Origin: Nitrosopumilaceae archaeon
GTDB taxonomy: Archaea; Thermoproteota; Nitrososphaeria; Nitrososphaerales; Nitrosopumilaceae
NCBI GenBank assembly: GCA_965214835.1
Contig: CBDCCK010000002.1
Span: forward strand, 1,888,001 to 1,952,000
Direction of reading: 5' to 3'
Length of the DNA: 64,000 nt
A model generated the notes under the pieces. That model saw only the letters and a list, made by a program, of their open reading frames with translations, was not told the DNA's origin and made no database searches. A program made the translations under genes and the position numbers. Shown here one piece after another: positions 3,891 to 55,248 of the stretch; position 1 is the first letter of the stretch; every line of letters begins with the position of its first letter.

Positions 3891-4126
3891 ATGGTTACAA
3901 GGCTCGAGGCAAAGCAGATCAGATACGCAGTGACGCAGTGTGCAGGGGGACGAAAGCCCTCGGAGGTGGCCCCGGAGATAGGCGTCACGACAAGGCACGT
4001 CCAGCGGATGCATGCCCGGTTCAAGAAGACAGGCGACACGCACCACGTGCCGCTCAAGCCGGGAAGGAAAAGGAGCGCTCTGGTTCCCGACGGGGGCGTT
4101 TTTATCATGTGTTCAACAACAGTCTA
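3891..4126 (+). pseudogene. Transposase HTH remnant (IS481-like) joined to an IS110 end
   Basis: MVTRLEAKQIRYAV...EVAPEIGVTTRHVQRMHARFKKTG...LKPGRKR; 4091-4117 matches the IS110 end at 54388-54415. Confidence 0.55.
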
Positions 4127-23211: not shown

Positions 23212-25497
23212 ATAGCAACATTGTCCTGATTCGGAACATCACGCTGGCAAGGGTCCACGGTAGGATTAGGTACGATTTCATATGGGAGATCTCCGCCATG
23301 GCCATTCTGACATGAACAAGACGAAAATCCTCACGGATGCCATGCGTGTGGAAAAGGATACCAGGATTCACACCAGAATTCTGGCGGTGCGCTCCGTACT
23401 GCTTGGCAACACCACTGCACAGACCGCAGAGATTGCCGACGTGACACAGCGTACCATACAGATGTGGGTCGAGAGGTTTGAGCTTGACGGCGTTGACGGT
23501 CTCCGTGACTCCCCCAACAGGGGCAAAAAGCCAAAGGTTCCAATCAACAGAATAAAAAAGATCGCCATGAGGCTGCGCAGGATGGAAAAGCTCACCCCAA
23601 AGAAGATGCGCAACTGGGTGCGCCGCAAACTGCATGTAACATACAGCGTTGGAAGCATCAGAAGAATCCTGCGCACGATGGGATTCTCGCTAAAGACGTC
23701 AACTACCAAGCTGGCAAATGCTGCCGACGCAAAGGAGGTAAGACGGTGGCAAAGGGAGGCAAAAGACACGATTAGGCTTGCAAAAAGGCGCGGATTCAGG
23801 ATAACCGTACAGGACGAGTCGATATTCGTCAGTACGGGAAGGGACGGCAAAAAGTTCTGGTCGCCAGTGGGGGACAGAATCGAGGTGCAACGATCCGGCA
23901 GAAGGGAGCGCGTCGTGGTATACGGAACGGTTGCAGACGACGGAACCAGGCTGATGCGTACATACGACAAGTTCAACAGCATAAACTTTGTGCGTTATCT
24001 CAAGCAGGCGCGCAAAAAGTGGGGAAAGGTTCTGATTGTGATGGACAACGCAGCACAGCATAGGACCGGAAGGGTCCGCATGTACCTGGAGAAAAATCCC
24101 GACGTTATCCTGCTGTACCTGCCAGTAGCCAGGCCGGAGCTGAGCGCCATAGAGCCAATCTGGAAGGATGCCAAGTACATACTGGTCACATCTGCCTTTT
24201 ACGATTCGGCAGATCACCTCAAAAGGGATGTCTCGGAATACTTTAGGACGTGTTCCATCAAGGTTGACATCTACAAATATCTTGAGCGCCGCGTGTAATC
24301 AGGCGAAATTTTCAATGATCGTCAGTATAGTCGTCAAGTACAACCCGGAATGGGAGAAGGATCTCAAGGATGCCAACCGTCACAAGGAGGGCGCCCCGTT
24401 CCTGTATGCAGAAGGCATGATAATGGCCGCAGCAGCCCTTAGGACTGCATTAATGATGAAGTACAGACAGCTGTCAGGCATGCTCGGGGAGATGCTAAAG
24501 GGCGCGGACTCGCCGTGTTACACCACGATATTCAGGAGAATACAAAAGCTTGACGTCGACATTGCAGAGCACGTAATCACGGTGCGCGACAAGACCCGTA
24601 ACCTGGTCATGATAGCCGATGCCACTGGCCTCAAGCAGCACAACCGAGGCGAGTGGATATGCAAAAAATGGAAGGTAAGGCGCAGATTTGTCAAGATGCA
24701 CCTGATGGTCGACGCAGACACCAAGCAGGTGCTGGCAGTATCTGTCACAAGTGATGCAGTCGGCGACAGCACGGAACTGCCTATACTGCTTGAGGAGGTG
24801 ACCAAGAACACCAAGGAAGAGGAGCAGCAGCAGGAACGCACCGACGACGCAGATGCAGTCAAGATTCCCAACATGCTTGCAGACGGGATCTCACCGATGA
24901 CCCTGCTTGACACCGGCGCGAATCCTGATACGCCGGGAAAGATCCTGCTTGCAGATGGCGCATACGGCTCAAGGAAGAACGTAGCCGAGTGCCACAAGCG
25001 CGGCATAAAACCACTCATACGGCTCTTGACAAGCTGTACTGCAAAGGGCAAGGGCACCGGCGACAAGTGGGGCATGCTTGTACGGTGGCAGCTTGGGGGC
25101 GGCCCCGAGGTGCCGGTGGGTGATCTCTCAAAGGAGGAAAGACAGGAGAACCTGCGGTACTGGAAGAGCACGGTCGGCTTCGGCAGCAGGTGGATAGTCG
25201 AGATCGTGATATCGTCCATAAAGCGCATGTTCGGCGAGGGCGTAATGGCCCTCAAGTGGTCCAATGTGGTGCAGGAGGTAAAGCTGAGGATATGGCTGTA
25301 CAACAAGTGGATCGCAGAGGCGGTGGCTGCCATGTAGGAACCTGGTGCCTGTAGTGATCCGGACGGAACGACTTGGCTCTAGTCGGAGTTATGCAACAAA
25401 CTAGATGTTGTACCATATTCCGGCCAGTATTGTGCAGGTAGCGGGATTAGCACCTAGGTGTGTCAATTACGCATAAAGTCTAATATAATTATCGTCC

Positions 25498-50200: not shown

Positions 50201-52405
50201 TGCCATGCGGCGCGTGCCGTATGTGGGCCTCTTGTTGCCAATCTCCCTGACAAGCAAGACCGTCTGCGGATCCGGTTCTGTCGGCTTTTGCGGCTTTTTT
50301 ACGTGGTACCACGCAGTTCTGGAGGCGCCGCTGTACTGCAGTGTCTTGTCCATGCTCCAGCCCCTCTCCCTTAGCAGTATTGCAATGTTCACCTTTTGCC
50401 TGCCTCCAAGGTTTTTTTTAAAAGCGCATTGGCCACGGCATACTCGCCGATGATGTTTTTGAGCGACTCGTTCTCCTTTTGGAGCCTGCCTTCGGCCGTT
50501 GCAGGGCCGCTGCCTGACAGCGATGCGCGTCCGCCCTGCAAAAAGCGTTTCCTCCACTGGTAAAACGTCCTGGGGGAGAGGTTGTGGCGACGGCACAGCT
50601 CTGCCGTCTCGATGTTGGTATTGAGATGCTCCATGACTATCCCTATCTTGTCCTGCGTACTCCATATTTTCTTTGTCATATTTGTAATTCGACCTCCTTA
50701 TTCAAAAAGTGTGCATTGCAGATCGTTCCTTCTTTTTTGGGATCCGCACCAAGTATCCGACCCGCCCAACGGGACTGCCACACATGACGATGATACGATA
50801 ACCTACACGCCTGATGCAGACTATGCGGGAACCGACACGTTCGGATACACGGTATCTGACGGCACCAACACGGCGCAGGGCACCGTAACCGTTACAGTCA
50901 CGCGCGACAACAACGCCCCCGTCCTCGGCACGATAGGCGACCGGGCCGCGAAGGTGGGATTCCAGCTGAGCATAGCGCCCACCGTGACTGATGCCGATCC
51001 TACAGACACGCACATGTACTCCATAACGCGCGGCACGCTGCCGGAAGCCGCCGCGTTTTCCACGTCTGACGGCAGCATCACCTGGACGCCAGTACAGGCC
51101 GACGCAGGACAGACCCATACGGTCACCATAACCGTAGATGACGGCCGGGACGGCACCGATTCTGAGACCTTTGACATATCCGTGATGGATATTCCAAACG
51201 CCCCGCCGGTGGCGCCCTCAGAGACGGCGACCACCGCCGAGGACACGCCCGTCACCATAACTCCCACGATATCGGATCCCGACATGTCGGACACCCCGGT
51301 GATATCCGCGGTAGCCGACCCGCCCAACGGGACTGCCACACATGGCGACGATACGATAACCTACACGCCCGATGCAGACTATGAGGGAACCGACTCCTTC
51401 GGATACATGGTATCTGACGGAACGGACACGACAGATGGCACGATAACCGTTACAGTTACGCGCGCCAACAACGCCCCCGTCCTCGGTACCATAGGCGACC
51501 GGGACGCGACGGTGGGCGCACAGCTGACCATAACGCCTTCTGTGACTGATGCCGATACTACGGACGCGCACACGTTTACGATATCGCGCGGCACTCTGCC
51601 GGCAGCTGCTGCATTCTCCACGTCTGCCGGCAGCATCACCTGGACGCCCGTACAGGCCGATGCAGGACAGACCCATACTGTCACCATAACCGTAAATGAC
51701 GGACGCGGAGGCACCGATTCTGAGACCTTTGACATAGTAGTAACCGAACTGCTCGAGGCGGCCGGCGCCCACCTGGAATTTGAGAACGACCTGACCGACT
51801 CTTCTGGCGCCCACGGAGGCACCATACAGTCCGGCTCCGTATCATATGCGGCAGGCCCCGTCGGGCGGGCAGTCATGCTGGATAATACACACGTCACGCT
51901 TGCAGGGGAGCCGGACCTTGACTTTGACACCGACGAGGCCTTCAGCATAGCATTCTGGATAAACAAGGATCACGAGCCCTCCTCCACCGTCTCGCTGGTG
52001 TCAAAGTCCGAGCGCTTTTGGAGGCAGGGAACCGATATATGGTTCAACCCGAATGCCGGCGGCAAGGCATCCCTCAGACTGTCTGACGGCTCTGCATACA
52101 TGGAGATACGCACGCCTGGAGCGGTGGCAGACGGCACGTGGCACCACGTGGCATTCACGTATGACGGCAGCGGCACCCGTGCGGGCATGTCCGTATATGT
52201 GGACGGGCAACCCGTCACCGAGATCACCGCAGGCGCCACATCGTTGTCCGGCTCCATACTCAACGACCATCCGGTCGGTATCGGTGCCAGCAGCACCGGA
52301 CTGGATCCGGCAGGAAACACCGCCCTTGACGAGCTGCACATCAGGCCCGGCCAGATGAGCGCGTCCGAGGTATCCGCACTGCATGCTGCCGGATCATTGC
52401 CATAA
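47246..52405 (+). pseudogene. S8 subtilisin-like surface protease (~1300 aa) with cadherin/Ig repeats and LamG, interrupted by IS3
   Basis: IIDAG, HGTA, AAGN, GTSAAAPHVAG; removing 49481..50755 restores ISAVSDPPNG in frame. Confidence 0.9.
49481..50751 (-). mobile_element. IS3-family element (orfA 50389..50679, orfB ending at 49541)
   Basis: TG..CA ends; TSD AGTA; WETDIT, RSDNG, PEQNGHVESF; A-run at the orfA/orfB overlap. Confidence 0.94.
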
Positions 52406-52426: not shown

Positions 52427-52560
52427 AGAGATGATTCGAAACTAGAAACCGTACGAATTTTTCAAGTAATTTCACAGATAACTTGTATTTTGTTGGTGTT
52501 TTGGGCTGTCATGCAAATTCGTTCACACATAATCAGAATCTGCTAATTTGAGCCAACTCT
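52427..52560. mobile_element. MITE family A copy
   Basis: Homologous to 1278..1414. Confidence 0.87.
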
Positions 52561-52561
52561 C

Positions 52562-52965
52562 AGGCGCGGCGTAAGGCCCCTCATACGGCTCCTGACAAGC
52601 TGCACCACTGCAAGGGGCAAGGGCGCCGGCGGCAAGTGGGGCCGGCTGGTGCGATGGCAGCTCGGGGGCGGCCCCGGGGTGCCGGTTGGGGGATCTGTCA
52701 AAGGAGGAGAGGCAGGAGAACCTGCGGTACTGGAAGAGCACGGTCGGCTTCGGCAGCAGGTGGATCGTCGAGATCGTGATATCGGCCATAAAGCGCATGT
52801 TCGGCGAGGGTGTAATGGCCCTCAAGTGGTCCAATGTGGTGCAGGAGGTAAGGCTGAGGATATGGCCGTACAGCAGGTGGATCGCAGAGGCGGTGGCTGC
52901 CGTGTAGGAACCTGGCGCCGGCAGCGATCCGGAAGGATTGGCCGGGCCCTAGTCGGAGTTATGCA
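52562..52965 (+). pseudogene. 3' remnant of the IS903-like IS5 element; its right TIR is split by IS110 and completed at 54411-54421
   Basis: Matches 24995..25396. Confidence 0.88.
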
Positions 52966-54412
52966 TCCATGGTAAAACGCCCGCCAGTAACATGGCGACG
53001 TTCCTTTCGTCTTCTGATCCGTGCCTAGTCGGCCGGGCCGTGCTTTATAGCTAACGCTAGCAATACGCACGAGCCAGTCCTGTCGCACCTGCCAGGGTGC
53101 GGGCGGATCATTGGGTGGGTGGGTGGGGGATGGAAGGTGGTAATCCTATGCCGTTCCCGCCAGTTCTGTCACCCTCTTGATCTTCTTGTCGTACAGGACA
53201 GCATTGCGCGATGAATACACAGTCTTTGTCGTCAGCATGTGCCAGATTATCCTGAGCATCTTGTTTGCAACATGCGTTATCGCTATGACGTGGTTGTTGC
53301 CGTTCCTTTTGCGGACCCTCTCGTAGAACTCCCTCATCCTGTCGTCGTGCTGTACGGCGACGTTGGCTATCTGGATCATCAGCCAGTTGATCCTGCGGTT
53401 TGCATCCTTTTTCATGTGGCCGTGGTACTCGCGTTCCCCCGACTGGTACACCCGGGGACACATGCCGGCCCAGGACACAAGCTGGTTCGGCGATGGAAAC
53501 CTGGCTATGTCACCGATCTCTGCTATCAGCAGCATTGCTGCAAAGGTGTCTATTCCCGTCATGCTCAACAGCAGCTTGGCATCCTCGTTCGATCCTGCCT
53601 GTCTTCCTATGTCCTCCCCTGCCTGGCCTATCTCCTCTGTGACGTGTACAATCCTCCTAGTGCAGCTTGCCAGTATCCTGTCATCGTTTGGCATGTTCAG
53701 CCTGGTATCGGAGATCTTCCGTATGGCCTTCTTGGAGTACATCGTGGATGCATCTATGGCTATATCGTACTTGTCAAGCCAAGCTGTGCAGCCCGTTTAT
53801 GACTGCGGTCCTCTCCTGCACCATCCGTATCCTGTACCTCATCAGCTCCCTGACATCCCTCAGCTCTGCTGATGCCACGTAGCATCGTGGTATCATTCCG
53901 GCCCTGAGCGTTTCGGCTATCTTCCTTGCATCTATCGGGTCAGTCTTTACGCTGGTCTCTGATACTATCTTCATCTTGAGGGTGTTTGCAAGCAGTATGG
54001 GGATATGCTGATCCTCAAACGCCCTGAACGTCTTTAGCCACATGTTGCCCGTTGACTCGCACGCGGCCTGGCACTTTTTGTACTCTTTTTTCAGTCGTGC
54101 AGCAAGCTTTGATGCCTCCTTGTACGTGTTGTTATACGAGCCCTCCTCTAGCACGTGTCCCTTGGCGTCGATGACGCACACTGCGCATTTTCTCTTTCCA
54201 ATGTCTATTCCTATGCTTCTCAATCCTTTTCTTTCACCTCCTTTCGGATATGGTTTGACAGATCAGAAGCTGCATTCATCCATCAGTGCGCGTAGCACAG
54301 GAACACAGCAGCTCGGATATCCCCATTCAACAGGTAGTGCGCGAAGCACATGCATAACGAGGGGTTGATCCATCACCCTGGCTACGGCGGGGGCGTTTTT
54401 ATCATGTGTTCA
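52964..54412 (-). mobile_element. IS110-family element, transposase 53146..54223 with one frameshift (~53780); CA core at both junctions
   Basis: IGIDIGK, ACESTG, KTDPIDA, GIDTFAA, WAGMCPRVYQSG. Confidence 0.9.
54262..54385 (-). ncRNA. Candidate IS110 bridge RNA
   Basis: Two internal loops closed by twin GTGCT(T/A)CGCGCAC hairpins; four loop strands match target and donor halves. Confidence 0.82.
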
Positions 54413-54522
54413 ACAGACTAGACAGGAACACCATTTTTTATAGATCGATTGGCGAAAAAATCATGCCAATTTGTTCAAAACATTCAGACACTTAAAAGGG
54501 AGATACATTTTCAACTACTGTA

Positions 54523-55248
54523 GTGGAAGAAATAAGCACAAAAATTTCGGAGAGGGACGAAATGTTCAAGACTACTGCCTCCCACAACCATCCGGATCCC
54601 AAACTCGCATACCTGAACGGAGGAAAGATGATAATTGAGACCGTAACTGATATTTTGAAAAAATGGGGGCCGGAGTTGCTGAACGGCAAAAACATCCTAG
54701 ATTATGGGTGCGGCCATGGAAGGGTGGCCAGGCACATCAAGCGCCTAAACCCGGCAAAATTGGTATGCGCCGACGTTTGGGACGATGCAGTGGGCTTTTG
54801 CGCCAGAGAGTTCTCGGCAGATCCATTTGTTATCTCAGATGACAGCCCGATTTCTAGCAGGTGGCAGTCATTTTTTGACGTGGTCATCAGCATTTCAGTT
54901 TTTAGCCACCTTCCGCCCGCAAGGTTTGAGAGGAATTTGACGGCCCTGCAAAAGGCAATGAGGGGGGGGGGAATCCTGCTGTATACAACCCACGGGAATT
55001 TTTCAGCGAAAAAAAGGAGTCTGACCATCCCGGATTCAAATTTCAGATATGGGCCGGTTGGCGCAAAGCCCAACCATACTGATGGAAGGCTACCGGTGGA
55101 GGAATACAGCTTCATGTGCACCAACCCGGAGTACAACAAGAGCATGGTTTCCAAGGCAGGCTTGAGCCTGTTGGAATTCAGGGAGCAGGGAATAAATGAA
55201 CAGGATTTGTATGTTGTTAAGAAACCGCAGGGTACTGGATCATTCTAA
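54523..55248 (+). CDS. Class I SAM-dependent methyltransferase
   Basis: ILDYGCGHGRV, FDVVISISVFSHL, GGILLYTTHG; contains a G10 tract. Confidence 0.88.
   Translation: MEEISTKISERDEMFKTTASHNHPDPKLAYLNGGKMIIETVTDILKKWGPELLNGKNILDYGCGHGRVARHIKRLNPAKLVCADVWDDAVGFCAREFSADPFVISDDSPISSRWQSFFDVVISISVFSHLPPARFERNLTALQKAMRGGGILLYTTHGNFSAKKRSLTIPDSNFRYGPVGAKPNHTDGRLPVEEYSFMCTNPEYNKSMVSKAGLSLLEFREQGINEQDLYVVKKPQGTGSF

Follow-up and report, generated by a model that had tools for sequence, protein, structure and literature searches.

A putative bridge-RNA-guided IS110/IS1111-superfamily element of a Nitrosopumilaceae archaeon, inserted in the terminal repeat of an IS5-family element

What brings an insertion sequence (IS) to one fixed position inside the terminal repeat of another transposon? 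This question is raised by a 1,449-bp element in a 64,000-nt stretch of a Nitrosopumilaceae archaeon (contig CBDCCK010000002.1, positions 1,888,001 to 1,952,000), hereafter called the window, whose own positions are used throughout; the window is part of a 3.22-Mb genome in two contigs. A first-pass annotation, made from the letters alone, had described an IS110-type element carrying an RNA programmed against an IS5 repeat. Our analysis indicates that the region is very probably a copy of an archaeal IS of the IS110/IS1111 superfamily that moves by bridge-RNA (seekRNA)-guided recombination. It is clearly a new archaeal example of a known mechanism, in which an arm order and repeats of the IS1111 type are found together with an RNA upstream of the gene.

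The ends of the element were read from eight copies in the same genome, which are 98-100% identical and have flanks that diverge past the target. The following features define the insertion:

52964-54412, minus strand: the complete IS110/IS1111-family element of 1,449 bp, with the TG/CA core at each end.
54411-54412, unstranded: left-end core dinucleotide (gene orientation), which reads CA on the plus strand and TG on the minus strand and is the sole sequence common to both junctions.
52964-52965, unstranded: right-end core dinucleotide (gene orientation), from the reading of the junction.
52950-52963, plus strand: inner part of the interrupted IS5-family terminal repeat (TAGTCGGAGTTATG), the same as in uninterrupted ends such as that at 25380-25404 of the window.
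54413-54421, plus strand: outer part of the interrupted repeat (ACAGACTAG), from comparison with other IS5-type ends.
52686-52907, plus strand: C-terminal remnant of the host IS5-family transposase, 73 aa resembling the C-terminus of the full transposase at L031.

On the plus strand, the left junction (52956-52972) reads GAGTTATG-CA-TCCATGG and the right junction (54403-54421) reads CATGTGTT-CA-ACAGACTAG. Both agree with the junctions and the CA core that had been proposed initially, although the right limit given then, 54421, has to be moved to 54412, as 54413-54421 belongs to the outer IS5 repeat. The core is thus TG on the gene strand and CA on the plus strand. As the empty site CTGTTGCATAAC contains one TG only, comparison of the junctions of the eight copies with empty sites shows that no target duplication is formed.

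Copies in the same genome were found by BLAST and nhmmer. Besides the eight copies mentioned above (group A), the genome has two sets of three more distant copies, B1-B3 (83-92% identity) and C1-C3 (about 65%), as well as many solo leaders. A wide left-end pattern scan, allowing four mismatches, had returned 157 mostly spurious matches and was replaced by nhmmer profiles. Read in gene orientation, every group A copy has the form xTAGyCTGT-TG/AACACATG...CCATGGA-TG/CATAAC, and the sequences farther out are unrelated. All eight lie at the same position of the terminal repeat (GNCTGT-TG-CATAAC) of IS5-family elements or of miniature transposable elements with inverted repeats (MITEs), which answers the question, raised by the first-pass annotation, of whether other copies also sit in IS5 repeats. 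The empty site corresponds to the tip of the terminal inverted repeat (GNCTGTTGCATAAC, adjoining TA) of 1.4-1.5-kb elements, and the same type of repeat also bounds MITEs of about 80 bp. The IS5 assignment of the target is supported by the transposase of the 1.4-1.5-kb elements, which scores 166.7 bits on the NCBIfam IS5-family model NF033579 (cut-off 140); a Pfam search with the 73-aa remnant gave no match. The empty site occurs 51 times in this genome with at most one mismatch, including nine exact occurrences, and the comparison end GTTATGCAACAAACTAG is located at 25388-25404.

Eight insertions at one position need not be eight events, as a single insertion in an IS5-type element might have spread as a composite. 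Copies A2, A4 and A6 have the same MITE-type right flank, and two pairs of copies have IS5 end types in common, as such a history would predict. However, the group A copies occupy four different end types of IS5-family elements or MITEs, and the host repeat is split 6-8 bp from its tip, so that the interrupted end should be disabled. Moreover, relatives of groups B and C and of the m2 type occupy the ends of unrelated repeat families, and these ends match the arms of the relatives themselves. We consider composite spread very unlikely.

Some further observations concern the IS5-type hosts. An element of about 80 bp (L034, G000:C2:~3110700-3110780) consists of little beyond two IS5-type repeats (TAGCCTGTTGCATAAC ... 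GTTATGCAACAGGCTA), and relatives of this MITE host three of the eight group A insertions. The host IS5-family transposase (L031:160-1374, minus strand; G000:C2:2913905-2915410) contains a tandem 18-aa repeat (KSIKKEEEQDCPDIVDTI), which is present four times in one copy (404 aa) and six times in another (440 aa). The truncated IS5 copy in the window is adjoined on its left by a 607-aa open reading frame (ORF; 50582-52405, plus strand) with two near-identical repeat units, rich in DADPTD/TVTVT, and a C-terminal part. Elsewhere in the window, a left-end remnant of 31-38 nt at about 4088-4112 is joined on its inner side to unrelated sequence. The first-pass annotation had placed a second end beside an IS5-like repeat at 4091-4126; the remnant does adjoin CAACAGTCTAA, but with three extra bases (CA-ACA-ACAGTCTAA).

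The element carries a candidate for the molecule that reads this site. A 187-nt leader (54224-54410, minus strand) lies directly upstream of the recombinase gene, on the same strand, and stops just ahead of the ribosome-binding site GGAGGTG. Its parts are:

54257-54374, minus strand: portion of the leader with a conserved five-helix, two-loop fold; helices found by alignment of 21 sequences and RNAalifold.
54351-54358, minus strand: 5' arm of the target loop, GUUAUGCA (DNA GTTATGCA), reverse complement of the core and right flank TG-CATAAC.
54328-54334, minus strand: 3' arm of the target loop, CCUGUUG, with the sense of the left flank and core.
54301-54307, minus strand: 5' arm of the donor loop, UGUGUUC, reverse complement of the core G and the left-end start AACACA.
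54277-54283, minus strand: 3' arm of the donor loop, AUGGAUG, with the sense of the right-end ATGGA and core TG.
54337-54349, minus strand: distal hairpin of the target loop, GTGC-TTCGC-GCAC, whose second pair shows compensatory changes (UA/CG/GC).
54287-54299, minus strand: distal hairpin of the donor loop, GTGC-TACGC-GCAC, with 100% of cells paired and compensatory change at two pairs.

The guide words, hairpins and layout named in the first-pass annotation were all recovered. The four words are found at 54358-54351 (GTTATGCA), 54333-54328 (CTGTTG), 54307-54301 (TGTGTTC) and 54283-54277 (ATGGATG), both loop hairpins read GTGC-N5-GCAC (54349-54337 and 54299-54287), and the consensus fold yields both internal loops. 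The target 5' arm matches eight of eight bases in all eight group A copies, and the 3' arm matches seven of seven bases in five copies, six in two and five in one. The window copy is one of those with six matches, its 7-mer CCTGTTG (54334-54328) differing by one mismatch from the flank TCTGTTG. Among 20,000 shuffles of the leader, none contained all four guide words, and one contained three.

The fold was derived from an alignment of 21 leaders, 15 from the genome of the window and six from three other genomes. Its five helices comprise a closing stem and, for each loop, a basal stem and a distal hairpin. The 28 pairs of these helices are paired in 95.2% of cases across the 21 leaders, versus 27-52% (maximum 51.7%) with slid partners, and compensatory change is observed at six pairs (28 cells). 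RNAalifold on the 21 relatives returned the same helices and left all four arms unpaired. G-U pairs are frequent (for example, in 20 of 21 leaders at one P4 pair) and are compatible with the gene strand only. Antisense transcription of the leader was considered and rejected by reasoning: it would place the core at the start of the arms instead of at their end and turn the G-U pairs into A-C mismatches.

If the arms specify the site, relatives with other targets would be expected to carry other arms. The target 5' arm was indeed found to differ in groups B, C and m2 and to match the flanks of each group. Group B has the target arms CGUAGUUG and UUCAUUUUCA (also given as TTCATTTTCA and CGTAGTTG), and its flanks are GTAGT-TG on the left in all three copies and TG-AAAATG on the right in B2 only. 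Group C and D1 have the target arms GACUUCUG and UGUCUUCCCA (also given as TGTCTTCCCA and GACTTCTG), with left flanks ACTTC-TG in C1, C3 and D1 and ACTTT-TG in C2, and right flanks TG-GGAAGAC in D1, TG-GGAAAAC in C2 and unrelated sequence in C1. The donor arm tracks the right end of the element in the same manner, ATGGATG occurring with ...CCATGGATG and ATAGATG with ...ACATAGATG (C1, D1 and m2). The targets of the group B, C and m2 types are likewise termini of other repeat families: one is CAGTAGTTG/AAAATGTACCCC, another is ...GGTTACTTCTG/GGAAGACTG, with 172 sites within two mismatches, and the third is GGGGTTG/TCGCCTAATTCGC, one of about 60 matches to the inner word.

Additional observations were made on these relatives. 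B1 (G000:C2:1517777) has a left flank of group B and a right flank (GATG-TCGCCTAATT) of the m2-type target, and the solo leader m1 (G000:C2:640362) combines a left flank of the IS5 type with a right flank of the m2 type; these hybrid junctions suggest recombination between elements at different sites. In two leaders (L032:~225-235, from the element at G000:C2:685686, and L030, from the element at G000:C2:504220), a GTACGAG... repeat begins right after the TG of the donor 3' arm, the joints being GATAGATG/GTACGAGGTCACC and GATGGATG/GTACGAGTTTACC. The donor 3' arm resembles, in DNA, the right end followed by the core, and the same GTACGAGG..CACCTACCCCC terminus also adjoins other transposon ends. 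The genome also contains a second IS110-family lineage (family E).

The layout is not confined to this genome. Protein relatives at 37-60% identity in three other genomes keep it, with arms that match their own flanks. From public species-representative genomes, 80 loci were kept. Those at 35-62% identity belong to Nitrosopumilus, Cenarchaeum, other Nitrosopumilaceae, Nitrososphaerales, Nitrosotalea, and to Bathyarchaeia and Methanosarcinales metagenome-assembled genomes; one locus at 45% identity lies on a contig labelled Candidatus Kaiserbacteria, and loci at 23-29% identity belong to Bacillota and Chloroflexota. In 57 of the 80 loci, an nhmmer profile of the leader fold placed the leader on the strand of the gene and directly upstream of it. 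Both loops were covered in 51 of these and the arms were readable in 50, one having been dropped for arm length. We then predicted 13-base junctions from the arms of each locus and counted matches within two mismatches. With the arm order of the window element, the predicted junction was found at 32/50 left and 29/44 right ends (50 loci, 39 distinct arm sets), versus 0/50 and 4/44 with the arm order of IS621, and 3.0% and 7.7% in a control with foreign target arms. Both junctions were found within two mismatches for 17 of the 33 testable arm sets. Some relatives elsewhere carry arms for the IS5-type repeat (TAGCCTGT-TG-CATAAT) or for the GGTTG...CGTAATTC type. Among the papers listed in our literature searches, none joined bridge RNA with Nitrosopumilaceae or Thaumarchaeota, which is weak evidence of absence. 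Archaeal elements of such a layout may already be present in the supplementary ISfinder-wide tables of PMC11187229 and PMC11208160.

The ends of the element contain further repeats, which could be bound by a protein:

54386-54399, minus strand: left subterminal inverted repeat (AAAACGCCCCCGCC), with a 9-bp exact block and an imperfect extension relative to the right end.
52974-52985, plus strand: right subterminal inverted repeat (AAAACGCCCGCC on the plus strand), matching the left repeat.
53011-53019, minus strand: internal motif of the right end, GAUCAGAAG when read in gene sense, which has its complement in the bridge-RNA tail CUUCUGAUC (54269-54261).

The repeat of group A is imperfect, its exact block of 9 bp being followed by a 2-base gap and then GCC. 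Exact blocks measure 12 bp in B2, 18 bp in C1, 10 bp in the relative from genome G004 and 8 bp in those from G010 and G030; their sequence varies among subfamilies, the 18-bp block of group C being of another sequence. In group A, about 12 bases on the left (TG+AACACATGAT) and about 10 on the right (ACCATGGA+TG) lie outside the repeats; overall, these extensions comprise about 10-12 bases on the left and 8-10 on the right. A 173-nt non-coding region follows the gene and contains no second two-loop fold. As for the internal motif, A, B2, C1 and m2 each have a block of 9-12 nt that is complementary to the RNA tail and lies at a distance of 47-48 nt from the right end, and motif and tail change together between groups A and C (TCTCTGATCCAC). 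As the motif is complementary to the 3' strand of the closing stem and to the tail, it repeats the 5' strand of that stem. It may allow an alternative pairing in a long transcript or be a repeated protein site.

These repeats bear on the view that the leader is a mere 5' untranslated region or regulatory structure. The protein would then pick the site via the subterminal repeats and the target, and the arm matches would be by-products, arising for example if the leader had acquired a copy of sequence resembling the target. The inverted repeats (8-18 bp) could indeed bind a protein, the leader ends just before a ribosome-binding site, and the ability of the right-end motif to pair with the tail hints at a regulatory role as well. 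Nevertheless, the arms covary with the flanks in at least four subfamilies of this genome and in the 39 public arm sets, whereas the helices remain constant. In addition, both strands of both substrates are matched around a common core, a geometry experimentally shown for IS621 and ISEc11/ISEc21, and the recombinase belongs to the family that is RNA-guided. We regard a purely regulatory leader as extremely unlikely.

The bridge-RNA reading also requires a recombinase, and the gene of the window copy is split:

53774-54223, minus strand: N-terminal half of the recombinase (149 aa, DEDD/RuvC-like), PF01548 DEDD_Tnp_IS110, E = 1.2e-28; its TGA end is made by the frameshift.
53146-53742, minus strand: C-terminal half of the recombinase (198 aa, Transposase_20, YQSG serine motif), PF02371, E = 3e-26; +1 frame.
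53777-53782, minus strand: frameshift site TTGGCT, with one G more than the intact sister (CTG-CT); present in 10 of 11 aligned A/B copies and absent only in B2.

The IS110 identity given by the first-pass annotation is supported by the two Pfam domains on these ORFs and by the intact sister B2 (378 aa; G000:C2:513380-514516). The latter has both domains and scores 234 bits on NF033542, 'IS110 family RNA-guided transposase' (cut-off 140). Using phmmer, B2 was aligned to IS621 (8wt6, E = 9e-9) and ISCro4 (9t56, E = 4e-9), with its IGID, ESTG, KTDPIDAR and YQSG motifs opposite IGID, EATG, KTDTVDAR and YESG of IS621. The same catalytic motifs are present in the two ORFs of the window copy. The catalytic residues of IS621 are D11/E60/D102/D105/S241 (PMC11208158).

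The frameshift is carried by all group A copies and by B1 and B3, the A/B copies differing by up to about 15%. The genes of C1-C3 are broken too, which leaves B2 with the only intact ORF among 14 full-length copies. As its recombinase gene is split, the window copy is not autonomous unless the shift is recoded. All eight near-identical copies are shifted, and they therefore spread after the shift arose. The simplest reading is that recombinase is supplied in trans by a B2-like copy; if still mobile, the window copy most likely uses the intact sister recombinase in trans with its own RNA. The ratio of nonsynonymous to synonymous substitution rates (dN/dS) of the two halves is 0.34 and 0.32 between A1 and B1, and 0.18 and 0.26 between A1 and B3. 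No slippery motif for programmed +1 frameshifting is recognizable at AGC-TTG-G-CTT-GAC, and recoding of the shift, which we keep in view owing to the dN/dS values, has a low probability. The common shift may reflect supply in trans, recombination that spread the mutation, or recoding.

A number of observations count against a bridge-RNA-guided element. With regard to the arms, the mutated 3' arm of A3 matches only five of seven bases, the right flanks of B1, B3 and C1 do not match their own arms, and the solo leaders m1, m3 and m5 have mixed junctions; the last six look like decayed or recombinant copies. Among the public loci, no match within two mismatches was obtained for 18/50 left and 15/44 right junctions, and the 50 loci are not independent, many being copies within one genome (hence the 39 distinct arm sets). 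With regard to the fold, the covariation score, matched by none of 500 shuffles, was drawn from kindred sequences, so that the shuffle control overstates its significance, and the folding energy of the single leader is not lower than that of its shuffles (z = -0.7). In the fold check that the first-pass annotation proposed, the arms are unpaired in the consensus, but the minimum-free-energy structure of the lone sequence pairs a few guide bases in part of the target 5' arm. This pairing is not conserved among relatives. A search of region 52800-54600 against Rfam 15 on both strands, with E up to 10, gave chance-level matches only and no bridge-RNA family. No RNA run was present among the public sequencing runs containing part of the stretch (13 rows). 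Finally, the frameshift occurs in the window copy and in 9 of the 10 relatives closest to it.

Some of these points would also fit an element that has the bridge-RNA architecture but is a fossil, the whole A/B family being dead in this genome and both RNA and recombinase inactive today. The shift in 10 of 11 A/B copies, the broken C1-C3, the single intact ORF in 14 copies and the several copies with decayed arms or hybrid junctions all point in this direction, as does the lack of an RNA run among the 13. No circle or empty-site joint was found in the contigs of four public runs over 52500-54900; these contigs break within the repeat, so this attempt is uninformative on circles, empty sites and expression. 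However, eight copies that are 98-100% identical at different loci indicate a recent amplification, and their spread after the shift requires either a working recombinase in trans or recoding. Furthermore, dN/dS is 0.18-0.34 in both halves between shifted lineages, and B2 is intact with its catalytic motifs present. A dead family is in our view improbable, though far less so than the two alternatives discussed above.

We favor an element moving by bridge-RNA-guided recombination. The sequences themselves show its anatomy, repeated insertion at one position, guides that complement and covary with their substrates, and a conserved fold; the mechanism proposed below, from transcription of the leader to strand exchange and a circle, is inferred from relatives that have been studied by experiment. 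A leader of about 190 nt would be transcribed on the gene strand and form a closing stem around two internal loops. The target 5' arm GUUAUGCA would pair with 5'-TGCATAAC-3' on the gene-sense strand, which comprises the core and the inner part of the IS5-family repeat, and the 3' arm CCUGUUG would pair with 5'-CAACAGG-3' on the other strand, which comprises the core and the outer part. UGUGUUC and AUGGAUG would pair likewise with the joined ends of a putative circular intermediate (...CCATGGA-TG-AACACA...). A DEDD/serine recombinase bound to the RNA would then exchange strands at the TG/CA core, giving the observed junctions and no target duplication.

The genome also contains miniature elements of 369-374 bp that have no recombinase gene. 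Four are complete (L016:1510-1883, plus strand; L019:1291-1663, minus strand; L023:1277-1645, minus strand; L025:1509-1879, plus strand), and three truncated relatives are found in L020, L021 and L026. They join the left end and the two-loop leader to about 120 bp from beyond the stop codon, followed by a right end of the C type (...TTAACATAGATG). Their target arms vary, and one type, with the 5' target arm UUACGCGACA, sits in GGGGTTG/TCGCCTAATTCGC, the terminus of a repeat present in about 60 copies. No description of bridge-RNA-bearing miniature elements was found among the papers listed in our searches, which is weak evidence of absence.

A more far-reaching proposal is possible, but doubtful. 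The thaumarchaeal elements could represent a third stable bridge-recombinase architecture, with an upstream RNA, two loops in one closing stem, the IS1111 arm order and subterminal repeats. Its subfamilies would be systematically programmed against the termini of other transposons (IS5 and at least three other families here, and the same target types in other genomes), the guide-carrying miniatures of about 370 bp would use the recombinase of the single intact copy in trans, and the shift, which leaves both halves of the gene under purifying selection, may even be recoded. If true, guide-carrying miniatures and a conserved shift would constitute a novel strategy by which non-autonomous elements make use of an RNA-guided enzyme.

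The reprogrammed series of subfamilies, the guide-carrying miniatures and the common frameshift are more interesting than the single locus. The series offers a readable natural case of archaeal bridge-RNA programming, in which the same scaffold and donor loop are kept and the target loops are rewritten for the ends of four transposon families; it could guide the design of compact recombinases. RNA-guided elements would here use other transposons as safe landing sites and disable those ends. In addition, arm order, subterminal repeats and RNA position, the features that separate IS110 from IS1111, are not always linked.

How does the element compare with known systems? With regard to classification, it has the following features of IS110 in the wide sense: the DEDD and Transposase_20 domains, the catalytic motifs, site-specific insertion at a core and, computationally, a four-arm RNA. 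The upstream RNA in the left end is that of IS110 in the narrow sense (IS621, ISEc21), a group from which the element departs in its arm order and in its longer subterminal repeats (none or 2-3 bp in that group). Among the features of IS1111, it has the subterminal repeats and the arm order (taking the top strand of the published work as the gene-sense strand), but neither the RNA downstream of the gene nor left and right extensions of 7 and 3 bp. The arm order and the subterminal inverted repeats therefore make it an IS1111-like element with an upstream RNA. This assignment is a provisional one, set by arm order, repeats and RNA position.

The comparison with IS621 follows Durrant et al. 2024 (PMC11208160) and Hiraizumi et al. 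2024 (PMC11208158). Both systems have a DEDD and serine recombinase, a left-end RNA that lies upstream of the gene on the same strand, and two internal loops, whose 5' arms (8-9 nt) are longer than their 3' arms and in which both arms end at a 2-nt core. One loop is for the target and the other for the joined ends, and no target duplication is formed. [quoted passage not shown] The first-pass annotation had stated that the guides read the opposite strand relative to IS621, and this is the case: the 5' arms complement the right flank and the start of the left end, both on the gene-sense strand, and the 3' arms have the sense of the left flank (target loop) and of the right end (donor loop). Each arm nevertheless has the core at its end. 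The arrangement corresponds to IS621 with the two DNAs flipped. The element further differs from IS621 in its core (TG/CA versus CT), its subterminal repeats (8-18 bp versus 2-3 bp), the closing stem around both loops, its archaeal host and its low protein similarity (E about 1e-8).

The reversed arm order has already been published for IS1111-family seekRNAs (Siddiquee et al. 2024, PMC11187229). The IS1111 elements ISEc11, ISPa11 and ISKpn4 resemble our element in their subterminal repeats, of about 11-13 bp, and in an arm order in which the complement of the top strand comes first, as well as in site- and orientation-specific insertion without duplication and natural reprogramming between relatives. 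In contrast, their non-coding region and RNA lie downstream of the gene, and their termini extend 7 bp (left) and 3 bp (right) beyond the repeats, compared with about 10-12 and 8-10 here. Rare IS1111-type exceptions are described in the same paper, with an upstream non-coding region in ISMtsp17 and long regions flanking the gene in ISHvo10 and ISAcp5.

There is also precedent for the targeting of other transposons, in the terminal repeats chosen by IS4321/IS5075 and in the IS targeted by ISEc21. IS4321/IS5075, like our element, insert at one fixed position and in one orientation inside the terminal inverted repeat of another transposon; however, they are bacterial and use the 38-bp repeat of the Tn3 family, whereas the repeat here is archaeal and of the IS5 family, and sister subfamilies hit the termini of at least three other repeat families. 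ISEc21 is of the IS110 type and is likewise an RNA-guided IS (PMC11187229) with a natural target inside another IS, although this target is a conserved coding region of IS3-family transposase genes and its arm order is of the IS110 type. Finally, the miniature elements resemble the hitch-hiking ssr9 module of ISPpu9 (PMC12288879), in that both are short transposase-less modules with IS-like ends that depend on an IS110-family transposase in trans, presumably so in the present case; ssr9 is not a bridge RNA, whereas the 369-374-bp derivatives described here combine a bridge-RNA leader with a right end.

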